Of a stretch of DNA of 64,000 bases, positions 8,681 through 16,908 are shown piece by piece. Position 1 is the first letter of the stretch; each line of letters opens with the position of its first letter. The notes beneath the pieces were generated by a model. The model worked only from the letters and a program-made list of their open reading frames with translations, was not told the origin of the DNA and did no database searches. The position numbers were made by a program, and so were the translations under genes. This DNA comes from an uncultured delta proteobacterium (GTDB lineage Bacteria > Desulfobacterota > Binatia > UBA9968): positions 160,001 through 224,000 of the forward strand of contig CAVSHR010000008.1 of the NCBI GenBank assembly GCA_963727625.1, given 5' to 3'.

Positions 8681-9331
8681 CTAATCCTTTTCCCGTCTTT
8701 GAAATTTTTCGCGCAAGCGTTCGCGCAGATTGTTTCGCTCTTGATCCTTGCCGCGCTCTCTCAAATCGCGCAGTTTCTCTCGGGCTTCCCGTTTTTCTGC
8801 CGGCGATAACCGGTCGAAACGCGCGCGCGCTTTTTCGCGCAACTCATCGCGCTCGCGGCCGGAAAAGCGCTCGCGCCGTTCCTGTAATTTGTCCCTCAGC
8901 TCCCGGCGGCGCTCCGGCGGTAAATTGCGCAGGGTTTGCATGCGCCGTCTGAGTTCTTCGCGGCGCTTGGCCGGCAGCTGGCGCCAGCGCTGCCAGCGTT
9001 CCTGCAAGCGCCGCCGTTCGGCGGGCGTAAATTTTTGCCAGCGCTCGAAGTTGCGCCGGGCGATGGATTGATCTTCCGGCGAAAGCCGGCGCCAGGTTTC
9101 AAATTTCTTCTGCAGCTCGTCCTTTTCGGCCCGCGGCATATTTTGCCAGCGGCGATAACGCTCGCGCACTTCCTGTTTTTCTTCCGGTGTCATGCGCTGC
9201 CATCGTTCCAGTGCATCCCTATCGGCTTGGGCCAACAGCGCGCGCGGCGGCAGAGGCTGAGCCCAGACCGCGACGGGGACAAGCAGAGTCAATAGCCAAA
9301 CAAAGCTCAGATTTCTCAATAGCGGCTTCAT
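8681..9331 (-). CDS. Secreted DUF3106-like Arg/Trp-repeat helical protein
   Basis: Signal peptide; repeats such as RWQRMTPEEK, RWQNMPRAEK, WRRLSPEDQ, WRQLPAKRR. Confidence 0.8.
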   Translation of the reverse strand: MKPLLRNLSFVWLLTLLVPVAVWAQPLPPRALLAQADRDALERWQRMTPEEKQEVRERYRRWQNMPRAEKDELQKKFETWRRLSPEDQSIARRNFERWQKFTPAERRRLQERWQRWRQLPAKRREELRRRMQTLRNLPPERRRELRDKLQERRERFSGRERDELREKARARFDRLSPAEKREAREKLRDLRERGKDQERNNLRERLREKFQRREKD

Positions 9332-9594
9332 TTAACCGTCTCCTTCTTTTTCCCAGGCGCGCCGGGCGGCGGCACGCCGCTCTTGACCAGCTCGTCGGTA
9401 CTCTCGAGATTTTGCATATCCTGAAGCATTTCCATTTGTTTGATCATTTCCATTTCTCGGAGGAATTCCATCATTTTAAGCATCTCACGATCGGGCGGGT
9501 CATCCTTGGCCCCGGCCGACGCGGCCGTTGGAGCCGTCAAGACCAGACATAGAATCAATCGGCTAAGCGAATTCATGTCCCGTGCGCGGCTCAC
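9328..9594 (-). CDS. Small secreted Met/Glu-rich protein
   Basis: Overlaps both neighbours by 4 nt; signal peptide (LILCLVLTAPTAASA); EMLKMMEFLREMEMIKQMEMLQDM helix. Confidence 0.7.
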   Translation of the reverse strand: MSRARDMNSLSRLILCLVLTAPTAASAGAKDDPPDREMLKMMEFLREMEMIKQMEMLQDMQNLESTDELVKSGVPPPGAPGKKKETVK

Positions 9595-10109
9595 GCGGCA
9601 TTGCCCTGGCTGCCCATGAATTCCAGCAGATCAAGATTATCGAGCACGTCCATGGCCTTGAAAAATTCCAAGTTTTCCGCCACCGGTAGCACTTCCATCA
9701 TCTCGGCATCATCCTGGGCCAGCTCGTTGGTCGACCAGATGCCTCTGCCCAGAGTAAAAGTCATGGCAAGCGCGACGATCGCGGCCGCGGCGAAGACCGG
9801 CACCAGGCGCGGCTGATAAAAAGCCGCGAGAGCTTGGCGCCAACTTTTCTGTTCCGCCGTGCCGTCCAGTTTGTCGCGCAGCTCGCGATTGTAATCAGTC
9901 CAAAACGAAGGCGGCGGCTGGTCGGTTTTAACCGTCAGCGGCAGCAGCGAGCCGAGCTCTTGCAAGTAGCCGGCGCAACCGGCGCAGTTTTGTAAATGCG
10001 CTTGCAGCGTCGCGCCCTCGGTTCGGTCAAGCTCGCCATAATGGTAAAGCACGAGATTCTCTTCCAGTGCTGCGCATGGGGCGGAAAGGATTTTGTTTGG
10101 TTCTGCCAT
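9591..10109 (-). CDS. Anti-sigma factor, zf-HC2 (ZAS) type, single TM
   Basis: HLQNCAGC (HxxxCxxC); TM PVFAAAAIVALAMTF; directly downstream of the ECF sigma gene. Confidence 0.88.
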   Translation of the reverse strand: MAEPNKILSAPCAALEENLVLYHYGELDRTEGATLQAHLQNCAGCAGYLQELGSLLPLTVKTDQPPPSFWTDYNRELRDKLDGTAEQKSWRQALAAFYQPRLVPVFAAAAIVALAMTFTLGRGIWSTNELAQDDAEMMEVLPVAENLEFFKAMDVLDNLDLLEFMGSQGNAA

Positions 10110-10118
10110 CCGGGCCTC

Positions 10119-10778
10119 CTAAGCAAACTCAGCCAGTCGCTGTCTAAGCGTGGTCACGGCGCGGTGCAAGTGCACCTTGACCGTGCCTTCGGCGGTCTCC
10201 ATCAATTCGGCGATCTCTTTGATCGACAGTCCCTGGTGATTTTTCAGTACGAAGGCGGTGCGCTGTTTCGCCGGCAGCTGCACCAACGCTTCGCCTACCC
10301 GCTTGGATATTTGCCGGGCCAAAACTTGCTGGTCGGGCAAAGGGGGCTTTTCACTTTGGTGTGATGGTTCCACTTGGTTCTCGACGGTCTCGTCGAACGG
10401 GTCCGCCGGGGCGCGTTTCTGACGGCGTTTATAATCGAGACAGAGGTTGACCAAAATGCGGTAGAACCAAGTATAAAAACTCGACCGGCCGTCAAAAGTT
10501 TTGAGATTGACGAAGGCTTTCAGAAACGCCTCCTGGGACAGATCCTTGGCATCCTCGCGGTCGCGGGTAAAATCGAAAGCGATGTGGTAGGCCTTTCGTT
10601 CATGGCGCTTCACCAGTTCCTCAAAAGCGCGGCGATCGCCTTGCCGCGCCGATGACACCAGCTCCTCATCCCCAGGGTTCACAAACGGACTCCAATCTAT
10701 CGCTGTTGCATCGCCGCAGAGGCCAAGAAGGAGCCGGCGGCGAGCACGGTTGGCCTCTACCGAGGCAGTGGGAGTCAC
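10119..10778 (-). CDS. ECF RNA polymerase sigma factor (RpoE/SigW-like)
   Basis: GDRRAFEELV, DAKDLSQEAF, SSFYTWFYRI, LSIKEIAE..EGTVKVHLHRA; RBS AAGGGAG before GTG. Confidence 0.93.
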   Translation of the reverse strand: MTPTASVEANRARRRLLLGLCGDATAIDWSPFVNPGDEELVSSARQGDRRAFEELVKRHERKAYHIAFDFTRDREDAKDLSQEAFLKAFVNLKTFDGRSSFYTWFYRILVNLCLDYKRRQKRAPADPFDETVENQVEPSHQSEKPPLPDQQVLARQISKRVGEALVQLPAKQRTAFVLKNHQGLSIKEIAELMETAEGTVKVHLHRAVTTLRQRLAEFA

Positions 10779-10791
10779 GCCTGCTCCCTTG

Positions 10792-10962
10792 TCAGTTCTT
10801 TAGCGCGTCTTTAGCTAAACGGCCAAACTTCCGATGATCGTGTTGCGGCCCATGCGCCTTGGCGGGAGTGATCTTATCTTCTTCCGCGCCGACCGCGTCG
10901 CCGGCAAACACCATTGGGGCCGCGGCCAAGCCTGCCGTCATGATCGCTAAACCCATTATCAT
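10792..10962 (-). CDS. Small (56 aa) putative secreted protein at the head of the ECF operon
   Basis: RBS GAGGG before ATG 10962; signal-like N-terminus MIMGLAIMTAGLAAAPMVFA; lies between the ECF promoter and the sigma gene. Confidence 0.55.
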   Translation of the reverse strand: MIMGLAIMTAGLAAAPMVFAGDAVGAEEDKITPAKAHGPQHDHRKFGRLAKDALKN

Positions 10963-11008
10963 ATTTGTACCCTCGTTCTGAATCGCCGGTCTTACCGGTT
11001 TGAAACGA

Positions 11009-11038
11009 TTAGACGCTTCGGCTCCCAGGAGGTTTACA
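11009..11038 (-). promoter_or_regulatory. ECF-type autoregulatory promoter
   Basis: Minus strand reads TGTAAAC-N16-CGTCTAA, matching the AAC/CGT pattern of SigW/SigM-like ECF promoters. Confidence 0.7.
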
Positions 11039-12066
11039 AGATCGGCATAGGCTGATTTTTTGTCCCGGTACAGTTCTTCCGCCAACCTGAAAAGTTCCGC
11101 GATCTTACCAACTTAAGCTTGTTCCGCCGTCGTGGCGGCAAGTTTGGCCAAGAGCCAATGGTCCTACCATCAGCGCTGTGGGGAACTGGCAAGCCGCCGC
11201 CACTCGGTTATCAAAGCGCTTTGGCATCTTGTACCAATGCGAATGAGGCAGGTTCGTTTGCCCCGCTGGCTGGGTGTTGCGGGAGGCTTACGGTATTTTT
11301 TTCTTCCGCTCCATTCCATGCCCACGCTGCCACTGCCGCGGCTGCTCGGATCACCTATAGGTGCAGCCAGGGGTCTTCCCTCCCCCTCGCACTTGCAGAA
11401 TCATTCGCACCCGAGCCGGTTGCGCAATCGGTTTGTACTTTTCAATCTTTCTGAGCGTCCCAATAGGCTGATCGCAACTTCATGTCTCAAATCCTGTTGT
11501 ATTCAGAATCACTGATCTTGAACAGTCGGTGTTGGTCAGCGGCTGCGAGCGCTAAAATGATCGATCGTCGCCAGTCCAGAGGTGCAGTGTCTGTCCAGTG
11601 CCATACGCGGCCTCGCAAAAAAATCGCAGTCCGCGCGAACTCGGCATGGTTAGGGACCTTAGGGTCGCTGGCCACTCCCGAATTACAGAGCGCAATGCGA
11701 TTCATCTACGGAGATGCGATAGGAAAATTACAACGATCATTAAATTTCCTGCCGTGATTACTTTGCTGGCTGGCAACGGCTAAGACTTTGCCCAAGGATC
11801 AGAGTCTGTTCGCCAAGTGATTCGCGACCAATCAGTGACCGCCGCGCGTCATTTGCTCGGGCTACGCTACCGTCGGGGCGGCATGACCGAACATTACGGC
11901 ATGGAGGTCCGTAATCCCACAAAAGCCCGCGGCAAGATTGGCCCTCTTTGGGGTCGAAATCGGTGCCTCGTTGTATGAGCTTGGGCTCCGGCTTGTCTAT
12001 GAACGCCTGGCTGCATCGACACGAAAGCATAAAGTCGGGGGCTAAGTTCGGCCACAAGCAAGTGAA

Positions 12067-12095
12067 TTGACAAGCAGGAATGGCTTCGGTACCTT
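12067..12095 (+). promoter_or_regulatory. Sigma70 promoter of the metal uptake operon
   Basis: TTGACA-N17-TACCTT, which implies the leader ORF starts at ATG 12109 or 12118 rather than TTG 12067. Confidence 0.65.
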
Positions 12096-12108
12096 CGTGA
12101 TCAAGTCA

Positions 12109-12399
12109 ATGTTTTCAATGGAACAAGACAGCGGTCGCCGGCTGATTGGCGCAATCCTATTAGCCTTCTTGGTTTTTCTACCGCTACACCATCACGCTTT
12201 TACGCCAACGACACAGGTCGCGAAAGAATGCGCATGCGTTCACGGGACGCGTACGCAGATGTTTTTACATGCCGATCTACCGACGGTCGCGCCGATTTTT
12301 CTTGTCACAGCTTTTGCCACACAATATGTATTTTTTTGGGCCGGCAACTGGTCCACTCAAAAAAAGGTCCGCGGTCCCCCCACTGCTCTTTCCGTTTAG
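12109..12399 (+). CDS. Putative metal-sensing ribosome-arrest leader peptide (DUF2946/CruR/CutF-like)
   Basis: Hydrophobic signal/anchor RRLIGAILLAFLVFLPL, HHH, ECACVH, about 44-aa spacer, then C-terminal RGPP. Confidence 0.75.
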   Translation: MFSMEQDSGRRLIGAILLAFLVFLPLHHHAFTPTTQVAKECACVHGTRTQMFLHADLPTVAPIFLVTAFATQYVFFWAGNWSTQKKVRGPPTALSV

Positions 12400-12426
12400 C
12401 TCGATCAACTATCCCAGCTAGTTTTT

Positions 12427-12465
12427 CGTCCTCTTTAGAGCCATTCGCGCGCTAAAGAGGGGACG
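12427..12465 (+). promoter_or_regulatory. Stem-loop between the leader peptide and the first operon gene
   Basis: CGTCCTCTTTAG ... CTAAAGAGG(GG)ACG inverted repeat; no U-tract. Confidence 0.6.
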
Positions 12466-12492
12466 TCATTTGTCTTGGAGGGGGGGCATTTT

Positions 12493-13776
12493 ATGGTGTT
12501 ATCCTTGTTACGGATGCCCGTGTTGAGCGCATCCGCTTTTGTCAGTTTTTTATTGCTTGTTCCGGTGCTGTGTTTCGCTCAAAGCTCTGAGATCGAGGCG
12601 TTGCGTTCGGTCGTTGACGGATTACAGCAGCAACTGCAAAAGGCCTTGCAGCGAATCGATCAACTGGAAAAAGAAAAGTCGGTTACGGCGGAGAAGATCG
12701 ATCGAGTGCAATCTGCGACTTCGACAGGGGTGGGAAATGTCGAAAAATCCGTACAGTCGCTAAAAGCTGCGCCGGCAGCTTTGAACCCGAGCATCGGAAT
12801 GGTGCTGGATGCCAATGTTTCGCAGAAGTCGGCAGAGGGAGGTAATTTCAATTTTCGCAGTGCGGAGATCGGACTTTCCGCATCCGTCGACCCGTTTGCT
12901 AGGGTGTACGGGTTTATCAACGGTACTTCGGACGGTGTGGAAGTGGACGAAGCGGCCGCGATTACAACTTCGCTGCCGTGGAACCTAACCGCGAAAGGGG
13001 GTCGATTCCTGGCCGATTTCGGGCGCTTCCCCAAGGTTCATGAACATGAACTGCCGTTCGTGAACGAGCCGCTGTCAGTGGAAAGAATGATCGGCGGGGA
13101 AACCCAGGCGGACGGGGTGGAGATGAATTACCTCTTTCCAACGCCATTTTTTTTGAGAGCGACAATCGGCGGATATAACAAGATAGGAGAGGGAAACGAT
13201 AGGGTAGACAACACAAATTTACGGTCGTGGAGTCGTTTCACCTACCTCGCCCGGCTCAATACTTATTTTGATATCACCGACAATCACAGTATCGAGTTAG
13301 GCACTAGCCATGCTTACACGCCTTCGCTGCGTCTTCCTGGCGATAGGTTTGGCGGAAATCGGATTCTCAGCGGCATAGATTTGACTTATCGCTATCAGCC
13401 GTTGGACAGCGTCGTGTACCAGGGATTAACTGTAGGCTCGGAATTTTTTCGCAACAGCGAGCGGATCGGGTTCGACGACGGTTCCAAACGGCGCCAATCC
13501 TACGGCGGCTATAGCTATGCCGAATTGAAGCTGAACAAGAATTGGTCTACGGGTTTTCTCTTCGATTATGCTCCTAGCATCGAAAGCCCCGGCAAGAAAA
13601 CCATCGGCTACTCGCCGTTTCTCACTTGGAATATGAGTGAATTCAATCGCTTGCGTTTGCAGTTCACACACATGGACGACCGCGTTCGTGAAGACAAGGC
13701 TGATCGCGGGAATCAGGTGTTTCTCCAATGGACCACGGTTATTGGAGCGCATACCCACGGCTTTCTTGGCCGCTGA
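12493..13776 (+). CDS. Outer-membrane beta-barrel protein of the type linked to Zn/metal ABC operons
   Basis: Signal peptide, N-terminal coiled coil, VHEHELPFV motif, alternating beta strands, SEFNRLRLQF, His-containing C-terminus GAHTHGF; RBS GGAGG. Confidence 0.75.
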   Translation: MVLSLLRMPVLSASAFVSFLLLVPVLCFAQSSEIEALRSVVDGLQQQLQKALQRIDQLEKEKSVTAEKIDRVQSATSTGVGNVEKSVQSLKAAPAALNPSIGMVLDANVSQKSAEGGNFNFRSAEIGLSASVDPFARVYGFINGTSDGVEVDEAAAITTSLPWNLTAKGGRFLADFGRFPKVHEHELPFVNEPLSVERMIGGETQADGVEMNYLFPTPFFLRATIGGYNKIGEGNDRVDNTNLRSWSRFTYLARLNTYFDITDNHSIELGTSHAYTPSLRLPGDRFGGNRILSGIDLTYRYQPLDSVVYQGLTVGSEFFRNSERIGFDDGSKRRQSYGGYSYAELKLNKNWSTGFLFDYAPSIESPGKKTIGYSPFLTWNMSEFNRLRLQFTHMDDRVREDKADRGNQVFLQWTTVIGAHTHGFLGR

Positions 13777-13800: not shown

Positions 13801-14730
13801 ATGAATAGCAGACTGTTGAGCCATAAAAACTGGAACATAATTTTGGCTGCTTTGTCTATTCTCGTCTTACAATCAGGTGCGGTTTTTGCGCAACAGATTC
13901 GAGTCGTGGCCACTTTTCCCGATCTCGCCGATATTACTCGGCAGATCGGCAAAGACTTGGTCAACGTGGATAGTCTCGCAAAAGGGGTCGAGGATCCGCA
14001 CGGCGTGCCCATGAAGCCGAGCTTTGTTCCTCGACTCAACCGTGCCGACGTGCTGGTTCTCACGGGCTTGGATGACGAGCATTCTTGGCTGCCGGCGCTT
14101 CTGGAAGTGGCCGCTAATCCCAAAATTCTTCTTGGCCGGCCGGGATATATAGACTGCTCAGCGGGTGTGCCGATACTTGAGGCGCCCGCATTGTTGGACC
14201 GATCGGAAGGTGATCTTCACCCAAAGGGAAATCCCCACTACTTGTTGGATCCTAATAACGCAAAAATTGCGGCACGGAACATCGCCGCCGGCCTTTCGCG
14301 AAACTTTCCTCAGCATCAGCAGGTTTTTGATAAAAATCTCAAAGCTTACCTCACGGAGCTCGACGGTTGGATCGTTCGCTGGGCGAAAATCGCGGCGCCG
14401 TTGCGTGGCGTCAAGTACGTCGAATACCATCCAGAGTGGGTTTATTTCGCCAATCGCTTTGGACTGAAACGGATCGGCAGCGTCGAGCTAAAGCCAGGCA
14501 TTGAGCCGACGCCGAACCATCTGGTTCAACTTGCTCGGCAGATCAAGCAGGAAAAGGCTCAAGTGTTGATTTACGGCGCGCAAAATCCGCGCATCCCCCA
14601 ACAGATGCATGGCGAAACCGGCATTAAAGTCCTGCGCCTTTACACCAGCGCGGGCGGCCGCCCGGAGACTGATAGTTACATCAAGTGGATCGATTATACC
14701 GTGCGCAGCTTAGTTCAAGCGGTGAGTTGA
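13801..14730 (+). CDS. Metal ABC transporter substrate-binding protein (ZnuA/TroA cluster A-I)
   Basis: VVATFPDLADI, EDPH, GNPHYLLDP, YHPEWVYF, KPGIEPT. Confidence 0.92.
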   Translation: MNSRLLSHKNWNIILAALSILVLQSGAVFAQQIRVVATFPDLADITRQIGKDLVNVDSLAKGVEDPHGVPMKPSFVPRLNRADVLVLTGLDDEHSWLPALLEVAANPKILLGRPGYIDCSAGVPILEAPALLDRSEGDLHPKGNPHYLLDPNNAKIAARNIAAGLSRNFPQHQQVFDKNLKAYLTELDGWIVRWAKIAAPLRGVKYVEYHPEWVYFANRFGLKRIGSVELKPGIEPTPNHLVQLARQIKQEKAQVLIYGAQNPRIPQQMHGETGIKVLRLYTSAGGRPETDSYIKWIDYTVRSLVQAVS

Positions 14731-14734
14731 GTTC

Positions 14735-15463
14735 ATGAAGAAAGCAACGGATACCGATGCGGTCCTAGCCACCAGAGGCGCGGCTCTGGGCGTCGACCTC
14801 GTGCCGCTGGTCTCACTCCAAAACGTCAGCCTGGGATACGGTTCGACTCGGGTCTTGATCAATGTCGACTTAACCGTCTATCCCGGAAACCTCGTTGGCT
14901 TGGCGGGGCCTAACGGTTCCGGCAAAACGACTCTTTTCAGGACGATTCTCGGCTTCTTGCCGGTGCTGGGCGGAACGCTTTCGCGCGGATGCTCGCTGGC
15001 CAATTTCGGGTACGTGCCGCAGAGCACGGCGCTCGACCCGCAGTTTCCACTGAGCGTCGGTGAAATCGTCGAAATGGGCGCCTATGGCCGTGTTGGTCCT
15101 TGGCGCCTTTTTCCGGCACATGAAACGAAACGAGCCGCGCAGGCATTGGAGCACGTGGGCATGGGGCATGTTCAAAAGAAATCCTTTTTTGCGCTCTCCG
15201 GCGGCCAAAAGCAACGCGTCCTAATCGCACGCGCGTTGATGGTCGACCCGAAAATCATGGTTCTCGATGAGCCACTTTCGGGAGTCGACGAGGAATCGCG
15301 GCGCAGCATCACCGAGCTGCTGATCGAGTTGGTTCGTGCGAGCGGTCTCGCGGTATTCTTTTCCAGCCATGATTTGGAAATGGTGCAGCGGGTGGCCGAC
15401 AAAATAGTTCGCGTCGATAGTGGGAGGGTTTTGGTCGAGGAAAGGCGGTCGCATTCGTCATGA
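14735..15463 (+). CDS. Metal ABC transporter ATP-binding protein (ZnuC-like)
   Basis: GPNGSGKTT, GYVPQ..FPLSV, LSGGQKQRVLIARAL, LDEP, SHD. Confidence 0.92.
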   Translation: MKKATDTDAVLATRGAALGVDLVPLVSLQNVSLGYGSTRVLINVDLTVYPGNLVGLAGPNGSGKTTLFRTILGFLPVLGGTLSRGCSLANFGYVPQSTALDPQFPLSVGEIVEMGAYGRVGPWRLFPAHETKRAAQALEHVGMGHVQKKSFFALSGGQKQRVLIARALMVDPKIMVLDEPLSGVDEESRRSITELLIELVRASGLAVFFSSHDLEMVQRVADKIVRVDSGRVLVEERRSHSS

Positions 15464-16908
15464 ATAGTTTTCTGGAAATCATGAGTCCTTCCTACCTGCT
15501 CTTCCCCGCGCTAGTCGGCACGCTGATCATGGGGGTCGTCTGCCCGCTTATCGGATCTTTTCTAGTGTTGCGCAGAACGATTTTTCTAGGCTTGACGCTC
15601 CCCGAAATCGCCGCCGCAGGGGTGTCGTGCACCTTTTGGTTGCAGCAAGTCGGAGTCTTGCCACAGCTCGCACAGGGCGAGCGAGGCATTGGCATGATCG
15701 GCTCTCTAGTGTTTACTTTCCTGGGGATGGGCTTATTGGGTTATCTGGAGCAGCGCGGTAAGGGACTGGCCGAAGCCCGGCTCGCGGCCGCCTATGCGTT
15801 TGCCGGAGCTTTGACCATTTTGTTCATGGTGTTCAATCCGGCCGGTCAGATTGAAGTGCTCAACCTCCTCAAGGGTGAGGTCATCGCCTTGACGCGTGGC
15901 GAGCTCAAGCTCGTAGTTGCGCTGTTCGGCGCAGTCGGCGTTGCCATGCTGGCGTTCCGCCGCGAATTTCTTTTGACCTCGTTCGATCGCGACCTGGCTT
16001 TTCTGCTCAAGGGGCGGCAGATTGTCTGGGATATATTGCTCTATCTGCTCGCCGGCTTGATCATAGCGATCGGCGTGATCATGGCGGGACCGTTGTTGAT
16101 TTTTGGTTTTCTAGTGTTGCCAGCGCTCGCGGCCAAACCGCTGGCCAAACGCATGAGTACCTACCTGCTGCTTTCTTCCTTGCTCGGATTCGCGATGGCG
16201 TTTATGGGTTTCTACAGTTCGGTGCGCCTGGATCTTCCCCTGGGTCCGAGCGACGTGGCCCTGGGCTGCTGCTTGATTTTTGGCGCCTATGGGTTAGGCA
16301 GGATAACAACCCGGAAAGCGGCCGCGTCAGTCGTGCTGATTGGCTTGGCTATGACATTGAGCGCTTGCGGCGCCCGCGTAGCCACAAGTCCGGTGCCGGA
16401 GGCCAAAGCCATTCATGCCGAGCAACTCTGGTTGGCCAAGGTGCGGAACAGCACCGCGCTGCCGTTGCTCTTGCCGACCGCCAATCCGCTCCGCTCGCTT
16501 GCCGAGATGGCCGGCAAGACTTCATCGAATTACCGGGAGAGCGTGATGGATTTGTTGCGTGAGAATTTGCAGGCTGAGCTCGTCTTGAAAGGCTTCGACA
16601 TTTCTCGTCCGGAGGACAAGGACGCGCGCTTCCCGCCGTTTCCCGCGGATAACCTAAGCGCCGCGCGCATGGCTCGCGAGGGAAAACTATCGGGGATGGT
16701 TTTCGTAAGCGAGATTTACCGGTGGGAGGGCGAAACGCAAAGGTTTGTTCGCGCCCTCGTGGATTTCAAACTTGTGCGCATCGATGACGGTGCGATCGTC
16801 TGGCAGCGACGGGTTCAGCGCGCTGTTCCAACGCCCAGCGCGACCAATCTCGCGCAGGCCTCGGCCGACGCTGTCAAAGCGATCATGCGGGACCTGTTTC
16901 CCAGCTGA
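15460..16908 (+). CDS. Metal ABC permease (ZnuB/ABC-3) fused to a C-terminal lipoprotein-like soluble domain
   Basis: First ~280 aa are ABC-3 permease (GSFLVLRR, SFDRDLA, DLPLGP); then LAMTLSAC lipobox and ~180 soluble residues. Confidence 0.8.
   Translation: MNSFLEIMSPSYLLFPALVGTLIMGVVCPLIGSFLVLRRTIFLGLTLPEIAAAGVSCTFWLQQVGVLPQLAQGERGIGMIGSLVFTFLGMGLLGYLEQRGKGLAEARLAAAYAFAGALTILFMVFNPAGQIEVLNLLKGEVIALTRGELKLVVALFGAVGVAMLAFRREFLLTSFDRDLAFLLKGRQIVWDILLYLLAGLIIAIGVIMAGPLLIFGFLVLPALAAKPLAKRMSTYLLLSSLLGFAMAFMGFYSSVRLDLPLGPSDVALGCCLIFGAYGLGRITTRKAAASVVLIGLAMTLSACGARVATSPVPEAKAIHAEQLWLAKVRNSTALPLLLPTANPLRSLAEMAGKTSSNYRESVMDLLRENLQAELVLKGFDISRPEDKDARFPPFPADNLSAARMAREGKLSGMVFVSEIYRWEGETQRFVRALVDFKLVRIDDGAIVWQRRVQRAVPTPSATNLAQASADAVKAIMRDLFPS

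Follow-up and report, generated by a model that had tools for sequence, protein, structure and literature searches.

The 64,000-nucleotide (nt) stretch of an uncultured delta proteobacterium analysed here (contig CAVSHR010000008.1, positions 160,001 to 224,000; "the window") contains a small leader open reading frame (ORF) in front of a likely zinc-uptake operon, and the 3' end of this leader can pair with the Shine-Dalgarno (SD) region of the first operon gene, which encodes a presumed outer-membrane barrel. Judged from the sequences of 29 loci, the pairing of leader ends with SD regions is clearly non-random. The reading that we regard as probable, with some reservation, is that the leader encodes an RGPP arrest peptide, that a ribosome stalled on it unmasks the SD of the barrel gene and that zinc, bound at a His2Cys2 site of the nascent chain, probably releases the stall. 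The conserved layout would probably let the cell adjust zinc import during translation of the leader.

By its homologues, the leader ORF of 96 amino acids (Table 1) is a real member of a conserved family that carries no name. A word-indexed search returned 27 homologues with identities of 45–75%, and a profile search of 1.84 billion representatives returned 144 at E ≤ 0.001, nearly all of them about 100 amino acids long and with the match reaching the C terminus. No Pfam or NCBIfam model matches the leader. Cys41, Cys43, Gly46, Arg88, Pro90 and Pro91 are invariant, and Leu-Pro-Leu-His27-x-His29, Gln36, Arg48 and Pro62 are nearly so. His27 and His29 are at least 90% conserved in alignment A3 of the family (31 sequences) and invariant in alignment A1; the R, P and P of RGPP are invariant in both. 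His27, His29, Cys41 and Cys43 form a candidate metal site, for which metal binding would be expected from these residues. The hydrophobic N-terminal helix is a candidate signal anchor or signal peptide: in an AlphaFold2 model built from 31 sequences, helix 4–30 is the sole structured element, with a predicted local distance difference test (pLDDT) score of about 95 at residues 11–20, and the mean pLDDT is 67.4 with low confidence outside the helix.

An R-[G/A/S]-P-P motif is found near the leader C terminus in the window and in all 30 loci collected by our genome scan. Among the 144 representatives, 136 contain R.PP (RAPP 108, RGPP 23, RSPP 4, RDPP 1); one of the other eight has LGPP at this place, and the C-terminal ends of the remainder look truncated or out of frame. 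Within the window, other ORFs ending in R[AGS]P[PG] gave just matches that look out of frame. In 30 of the 31 loci, and in 126 of the 136 representatives with R.PP, CxC and Arg are separated by exactly 44 residues (residues 44–87 in the window, 12238–12369), and this spacer holds just one conserved position. Five residues follow PP in 26 of the 31 loci and in 77 of the 136 representatives, and the first Pro codon lies 21 nt 5' of the leader stop in 25 of 29 loci.

RAPP and RGPP cause robust arrest in experiments, which elongation factor P does not relieve; the stalled ribosome holds the third codon of the motif in its P site and the fourth in its A site. Although depleted in proteomes, both motifs are over-represented close to the C terminus of small exported proteins whose genes precede various others, metal genes among them (Fujiwara 2025, PMC12992588; drawn on in part, as are the other articles cited below). 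The leader fits this class of arrest peptides, with its motif near the C terminus of a protein of <300 amino acids; as in the class, a same-strand gene follows, which the leader would control. By analogy, the stall in the window would be expected with the Pro90 codon (12376–12378) in the P site and the Pro91 codon (12379–12381) in the A site.

In locus L011, from a metagenome-assembled genome (MAG) labelled Chloroflexota, ZnuA, ZnuC and ZnuB are 84–87% identical to those of the window and the leader only 36%; the leader may be evolving much faster than the transporter, or the operon may be mosaic or mis-binned.

Pairing of leader ends with the Shine-Dalgarno region

The RNA tests comprised 29 regions, with L016 (different downstream gene) and L019 (contig end) left out. 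Each partition-function fold began 36 nt 5' of the Pro codons and ended 21 nt past the ATG of the barrel gene, and an SD 8-mer was scored. In 26 of the 29 loci, the predicted probability that the SD is paired within the stretch between Arg codon and stop is at least 0.5, which, at the level of computation, bears out the preliminary description of this DNA, made from the window sequence alone, in its proposal that the leader 3' end can pair with the SD. A stalled ribosome covers the mRNA from P-12 to P+15, and pairing falls inside this footprint in 19 loci. With CCU or CCC as the first Pro codon, the anti-SD falls on the Pro codons; with CCG, it falls on the tail codons (typically CUCUCCCU). 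Tail codons carry the main anti-SD in many loci other than the window, and in L017 the anti-SD lies on and just past the leader stop.

In the window, the preliminary description had named two anti-SD elements, UGCUCUUUCC and the run CCCCCC, as partners of the G-rich SD region GGAGGGGGGGCA. The letters and coordinates of all three are correct, and CCCCCC (12376–12381) is the Pro90-Pro91 codon pair of the leader, but the two partners are unequal. Ensemble pairing of the SD amounts to 0.67 with 12374–12381 and to 0.14 with UGCUCUUUCC; the Pro codons are therefore the anti-SD of the window and UGCUCUUUCC is a minor partner. In the minimum free energy structure, GUCCCCCC pairs with GGGGGGGC, the best duplex reaching -19.7 kcal/mol, and UCC 12391–12393 is able to pair with GGA 12477–12479. 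Against a 9-nt probe of the 16S anti-SD, the barrel SD forms a duplex of -11.7 kcal/mol. The strong hairpin that had been placed between the two strands indeed folds, at -17.2 kcal/mol, and is enclosed by the long-range leader/SD helix (RNAfold of 12360–12500). When 12365–12395 was held unpaired, the opening cost of GGAGGGGGGG dropped from 11.27 to 4.57 kcal/mol and the mean unpaired probability of the SD rose from 0.135 to 0.465. The window pairing ranks in the top 1.5% when compared with 260 other coding segments of 36 nt.

The specificity of the pairing was assessed across loci. Cognate duplexes of leader end and SD have a mean of -19.39 kcal/mol versus -16.5 kcal/mol for non-cognate duplexes, and 0 of 20,000 permutations were as good, which is the covariation that the preliminary description had called for. 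The leader/SD helix often continues past the SD core with flanks that match, as in L009 (13 base pairs (bp)), L018 (12 bp), L005 and L002 (14 bp each) and L023 (10 bp). Seven control segments, of which five come from other parts of the leader, one from the intergenic region and one from within the barrel gene, reached only -12.3 to -14.3 kcal/mol against the SD. Six of them are without cognate preference (521, 316, 2,419, 2,297, 3,711 and 1,535 of 5,000 permutations); the seventh, at offset -189, has a weak one (8 of 5,000; -14.25 versus -12.85 kcal/mol), which may reflect a second weak anti-SD or a multiple-testing effect. This 36-nt segment overlaps the LPLH codons (12184–12200 in the window), which hold a CU-rich run.

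Codon choice points in the same direction: in 26 of the 29 loci the observed codons outperform synonymous recodings (mean z -1.46; p ≤ 0.05 in nine), and the leader ends beat 95% of the other coding segments in 18. With the stalled-ribosome footprint masked, the mean opening cost of the SD fell from 11.24 to 6.33 kcal/mol, and the drop was at least 2 kcal/mol in 24 loci. We found neither an SD that is accessible regardless of the anti-SD nor a lack of conserved pairing among the homologues.

A hairpin lies between leader stop and SD in all 29 loci, at -9.2 to -28.8 kcal/mol. Its arms carry, in most loci and in several phyla, an anti-SD-like CCCUCC on the 5' side and an SD-like GGGAGGG on the 3' side. 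A role as a clamp needs the stability of the hairpin alone and does not account for the kept arm sequence.

Relation to known arrest peptides

Systems of this kind are already known in the copper-linked CruR and CutF. The present leader family probably combines the layout of CruR (sensor motif, ruler, arrest core, short tail and uptake operon) with an output of the SecM/CutF type. New with respect to the copper analogues would be an anti-SD that consists of the arrest and tail codons themselves, together with a hairpin that clamps the long-range helix.

In CruR, a CXXC motif located 45 residues from RAPP senses copper, whereupon the arrest is relieved and Rho-dependent termination can follow (Roy 2022, PMC9426467). 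As far as that source was drawn on, CruR (Bordetella pertussis bp2923, DUF2946) and the leader share a small leader peptide (exported in CruR and presumably here), a metal-uptake operon beginning with an outer-membrane protein, a Cys motif, an arrest core a few residues before the stop, a fixed spacing (45 residues in CruR, 44 here), a C-rich, G-poor 3' region and a proposed logic in which metal relieves the arrest and uptake is turned off. They differ in the sensor, which is CXXC in CruR and CxC plus HxH here; in the genomic context, which is a TonB-dependent transporter there and a ZnuABC-type transporter here; and in the output, which is Rho-dependent termination over a 162-nt gap there and a conserved SD-sequestering helix here. 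The DUF2946 Pfam model matched none of 28 leader family members, even at E ≤ 10.

CutF (Rhodobacter capsulatus cutFOG) represents the other close analogue, in which a stem-loop covers the SD of the following gene until translation and export of the leader open it; according to the authors, CutF-like leaders precede genes for several transition metals (Ozturk 2023, PMC9973294). Within the part of that article considered, both leaders are proteins of <150 amino acids, exported in CutF and presumably here, that carry a (here putative) metal motif as well as a Pro-rich stalling motif at the C terminus. In both, an mRNA structure, predicted here in 26 of 29 loci, shields the next SD and would have to be opened by leader translation. 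The leader also conforms to a CutF-like rule drawn from that article, with 96 amino acids, PP five residues from the end and a gap of 93 nt. CutF differs by its CxxxC motif and copper, by the proposal that the metal prolongs the stall and induces a detoxifying oxidase, and by an anti-SD located in the intergenic stem-loop rather than made of arrest and tail codons. A search of two small supplementary files of Ozturk 2023 gave no match to the leader.

The preliminary description had likened the switch to SecM and MifM. The comparison holds for the predicted stall-opened SD structure, but CruR and CutF are closer, since what follows the leader here encodes metal transporters instead of Sec or YidC components. 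In SecM, MifM and VemP, a stall near the leader 3' end disrupts an SD-hiding structure and force on the nascent chain releases the arrest, as proposed here (Sakiyama 2021, PMC7897499, in part); these peptides monitor Sec or YidC and precede sec or yidC genes, in contrast to the metal transporters found downstream here. The His/Cys site at a fixed distance suggests a ligand, not export, as the signal in the present family.

ApcA, ApdA and ApdP were the first leaders described with an arrest core of the RAPP type, and the authors predicted no SD-sequestering hairpin for them in the part of the article considered (Sakiyama 2021, PMC7897499). These three and Streptomyces SLIV_16130 and SLIV_18480 are small proteins that, like the leader, carry RAPP/RGPP close to the C terminus; they are exported or membrane proteins, as the leader presumably is too. 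The two Streptomyces leaders precede metal-related genes, have conserved Cys/His residues and are proposed metal sensors linked to copper, according to the part of the source drawn on (PMC12992588). The parts of the Fujiwara 2025 supplements that were searched did not contain the motifs of our leader family, which may still be listed there.

Our literature search found no paper linking an arrest peptide to zinc uptake or znuABC. The word "zinc" is absent from the main text of the CutF and EMBO J papers and from the full text of the CruR paper, and "ZnuA" is absent from the main text of the CutF paper (PMC9973294). Metal-sensing arrest peptides have so far come from copper systems, and the leader family offers a likely zinc case. 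Whereas RAPP/RGPP leaders have been catalogued mostly without an output mechanism, an explicit, conserved RNA output is predicted here. As the 44-residue ruler between sensor and arrest core resembles that of CruR, release of the arrest by ligand-induced folding becomes testable.

Proposed switch and alternative explanations

In the proposed mechanism, the leader would act as a membrane-targeted arrest peptide with a regulatory role. In the ON state, translation of the leader would halt at R88-G-P-P91, the P site holding the Pro90 codon and the A site that of Pro91. The C-rich Pro and tail codons would then lie under the stalled ribosome (footprint about 12364–12391) and be kept from pairing with the SD, which lies 100 nt further downstream; the hairpin between the genes would be folded, the SD free and the barrel-ZnuABC-ZIP operon translated. 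In the OFF state, the arrest would end, the ribosome would read five more codons and terminate, and the leader 3' end would zip onto the SD around the hairpin clamp, blocking initiation. The release signal would most likely be zinc. At the stall, the His27/His29/Cys41/Cys43 cluster would sit at a fixed distance past the tunnel exit (44 residues from CxC to Arg), and metal-driven compaction would pull on the nascent chain and end the arrest, so that high zinc would turn uptake off. A metal-released stall and this direction of the switch are suggested by the analogy to CruR, the conserved His and Cys residues and the fixed spacing. If true, the mechanism would account for the control of zinc uptake in poorly known uncultured lineages, namely Binatia and their neighbours.

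A more specific version, which we put forward tentatively as somewhat short of probable, is that the leader is the first zinc-sensing arrest peptide: a leaderless, membrane-targeted chain with a His2Cys2 site exactly 44 residues from RGPP/RAPP, whose compaction outside the ribosome or translocon would end the arrest and shut the uptake operon. If this is true, zinc homeostasis in Binatia and several other phyla would be set co-translationally, instead of or besides a Zur-type repressor, and the spacing of about 45 residues, common to the family and the copper-sensing CruR, would suggest that arrest release by ligands relies on a general molecular ruler.

Several points weigh against the proposed switch. 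The computation covers the conserved family, motif and spacing, the synteny, the co-varying pairing and the lower opening cost of the masked SD; arrest at this leader, regulation, its on/off sign, zinc as the ligand and the topology are what we infer rather than measurements. Considered by itself, the window pairing is no better than C-rich composition predicts: the whole fold of 12360–12500 has z = -0.71, with 37 of 200 shuffles folding as well; shuffled versions of 12367–12399 make the SD at least as costly to open as the real sequence does in 236 of 300 trials, since a G-run will pair with any C-rich stretch; and synonymous recoding of the leader end yields p = 0.137. Across loci, pairing of the SD with the Arg-codon-to-stop segment fails in three of 29 (probabilities of 0.0 in L015, 0.10 in L017 and 0.16 in L022). 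RNAalifold, run on a MAFFT alignment of the 29 regions from Arg codon to ATG, gave 0 consensus pairs because the register of the anti-SD differs between loci (Pro codons, tail or on the stop), and the pairing is therefore supported by alignment-free tests alone. Loci count as independent in the permutation and t-tests, although many of them are related Binatia. That a stalled ribosome masks the anti-SD, as the preliminary description had held, is in line with the lower opening cost in 24 of 29 loci, but the SD is still mostly paired in the prediction with masked footprint (mean unpaired probability 0.01–0.49), and the predicted unmasking by a terminating ribosome is about equally effective (7.28 kcal/mol). 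The AlphaFold2 model of the leader contains no folded metal domain, and the binding protein of the operon stays far below the NCBIfam cut-offs for AztC, MntC and ZnuA. Lastly, the C-rich, G-poor segment downstream of the Pro codons is what a Rho loading site would show.

This last point leads to an alternative of the CruR type, which we consider unlikely but the best of the competing explanations: the stalled ribosome would block Rho loading on C-rich, G-poor RNA, SD pairing would be secondary or absent, and Rho would terminate transcription before or inside the barrel gene once the stall is released. Such a mechanism could also act jointly with the translational switch. C exceeds G between the Pro codons and the start of the hairpin in all 29 loci (C 0.29–0.46, G 0.02–0.24), and CruR, the best-studied metal-sensing RAPP leader, works in this way (PMC9426467, in part). 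However, the segment is short (28–65 nt) and followed by a strong hairpin, and its complementarity is specific to the SD of the same locus and extends into the flanks, a property that Rho loading does not require and that the control segments are without.

Rather improbable is a switch of the opposite sign, as in CutF, where metal would prolong the stall and turn the downstream genes on. Binding of copper to CutF delays export and favours unfolding of the SD-shielding stem-loop, as described in the part of the source considered (PMC9973294), and the RNA layout suits either sign. The downstream genes, however, look like uptake genes (ZnuA-type, ABC-3 and ZIP), and induction by metal would therefore be counter-productive; moreover, RAPP/RGPP arrest is intrinsically strong, which makes release the more natural regulated step.

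Plain translational coupling, in which the leader would be a working membrane metalloprotein and any finishing ribosome would open the SD helix without regulated arrest or sensing, seems less probable still. It would agree with the similar unmasking by terminating and stalled ribosomes (7.28 versus 6.33 kcal/mol), and the N-terminal helix and His/Cys motif would also suit a mature protein. It leaves unexplained the near-invariant R.PP (136 of 144 representatives), the unconserved spacer of exactly 44 residues and the fixed short tail, and RAPP-like motifs are depleted in ordinary proteins because they stall ribosomes, as stated in the part of the source drawn on (PMC12992588).

Attenuation by an intrinsic terminator, with the hairpin and a U-run terminating and the leader end acting as antiterminator through the G-rich 3' arm of the hairpin, we judge very unlikely. 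At least six T occur within 10 nt of the hairpin's 3' flank in 12 of 29 loci, L009 and L011 have seven-T runs one base past the hairpin, and the SD-like 3' arm could pair with the leader end. Yet 17 loci have fewer than six T, and a terminator scan did not call the hairpin of the window, whose T-run is interrupted (three terminator-like sites in the window versus 2.3 expected). Furthermore, the local hairpin is longer than any duplex of leader end and 3' arm, so that competition is unfavourable and no workable antiterminator results, and the stalled ribosome stops short of the hairpin, which starts 28–65 nt past the first Pro codon. A coincidence of C-rich Pro codons and a G-rich SD, with the helix a functionless by-product, would fit the non-significant controls of the window but is hardly credible given the cognate preference (0 of 20,000), a codon choice that favours pairing over synonymous alternatives in 26 of 29 loci, and helices that reach past the SD core.

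Operon, promoter and genomic context

The 30 loci from the genome scan derive mostly from Binatia or "delta proteobacterium" MAGs, with single loci labelled Acidiferrales, Chloroflexota, Eisenbacteria and Udaeobacter. A barrel gene follows the leader in 28 of them, and the order leader-barrel-ZnuA-ZnuC-ZnuB is kept wherever the contig is long enough. The gap between leader stop and barrel ATG measures 73–110 nt across 29 loci, and 93 nt on the same strand in the window. One contig (L019) ends 5 nt past the leader stop. In L016 (1257–2190), a leader ending in RAPPVL is followed not by a barrel gene but by a membrane protein of 162 amino acids with Cys motifs and its own GGAGG; the leader module may be portable between metal-related operons.

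Table 1. Coordinates of the leader, its RNA elements and the operon genes within the window
Feature	Position	Strand	Remarks
Promoter-like site	12067–12095	+	TTGACA 12067–12072, 17-nt spacer, -10-like TACCTT 12090–12095
Small leader ORF	12109–12399	+	96 amino acids; ATG 12109, stop TAG 12397–12399
N-terminal hydrophobic helix codons	12118–12198	+	Residues 4–30; preceded by Arg10-Arg11
Candidate metal site	12187–12237	+	His27 12187–12189, His29 12193–12195, Cys41 12229–12231, Cys43 12235–12237
RGPP arrest motif (putative)	12370–12381	+	Residues 88–91 of 96; invariant R, P, P
Main anti-SD strand GUCCCCCC	12374–12381	+	Pairs with GGGGGGGC 12480–12487
Tail codons and stop	12382–12399	+	Five codons (TALSV), then stop
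Minor second anti-SD UGCUCUUUCC	12384–12393	+	Pairing mass 0.14
Intergenic hairpin	12427–12465	+	Inside the long-range leader/SD helix
Barrel SD region GGAGGGGGGGCA	12477–12488	+	6 nt 5' of ATG
Barrel gene	12493–13776	+	427 amino acids; signal peptide, coiled-coil segment, presumed outer-membrane barrel
ZnuA-like binding protein	13801–14730	+	Pfam ZnuA, 6.3e-50
ABC ATPase	14735–15463	+	Pfam ABC_tran
ABC-3 permease	15460–16908	+	Pfam ABC-3
ZIP transporter	ORF open from 16745, ends 17671	+	Pfam Zip

Judging from sequence similarity, zinc is the likely metal of the operon. The best solved relatives of the binding protein are zinc-uptake proteins (2ov1, E 5.4e-22), and His residues are aligned at three short motifs; these aligned residues we take to be zinc ligands. 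The barrel protein matches no Pfam or NCBIfam family above cut-off and no sequence in the PDB. Its neighbours in the protein atlas are unnamed clusters of Binatota and Acidobacteriota; Porin_O_P, at 22% of one cluster, provides a weak lead. The ABC-3 permease ORF encodes 482 amino acids, of which the Pfam domain spans residues 13–274, leaving about 200 C-terminal residues without a family, and the ZIP ORF, taken from TTG 16745, overlaps its end.

The promoter of the operon looks constitutive and leaderless. TTGACA is present 100–125 nt 5' of the LPLH codons in 29 of 31 loci, followed 16–18 nt on by a -10-like hexamer. In 25 of these 29 loci an in-frame ATG or GTG sits 4–9 nt past the hexamer, and because of this position the leader mRNA looks leaderless. 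In the window, AAG occupies the expected position of a leaderless start and ATG 12109 lies 13 nt past the hexamer; the leader reading frame is open from TTG 12067, with a further GTG at 12097. A strict consensus scan called no promoter in the window, and no palindromic repressor box was visible by eye near the promoter-like sites.

Rfam contains no family matching 10700–12700 at E ≤ 1. The region of about 1 kb 5' of the leader (11086–12066) holds short overlapping ORFs only, likewise without an Rfam match. Further upstream, the minus strand carries a block (8681–10778) with genes for an extracytoplasmic function (ECF) sigma factor (10119–10778), a zf-HC2 anti-sigma factor (9591–10109) and a repetitive, Arg/Glu-rich secreted protein of 216 amino acids (8681–9331).

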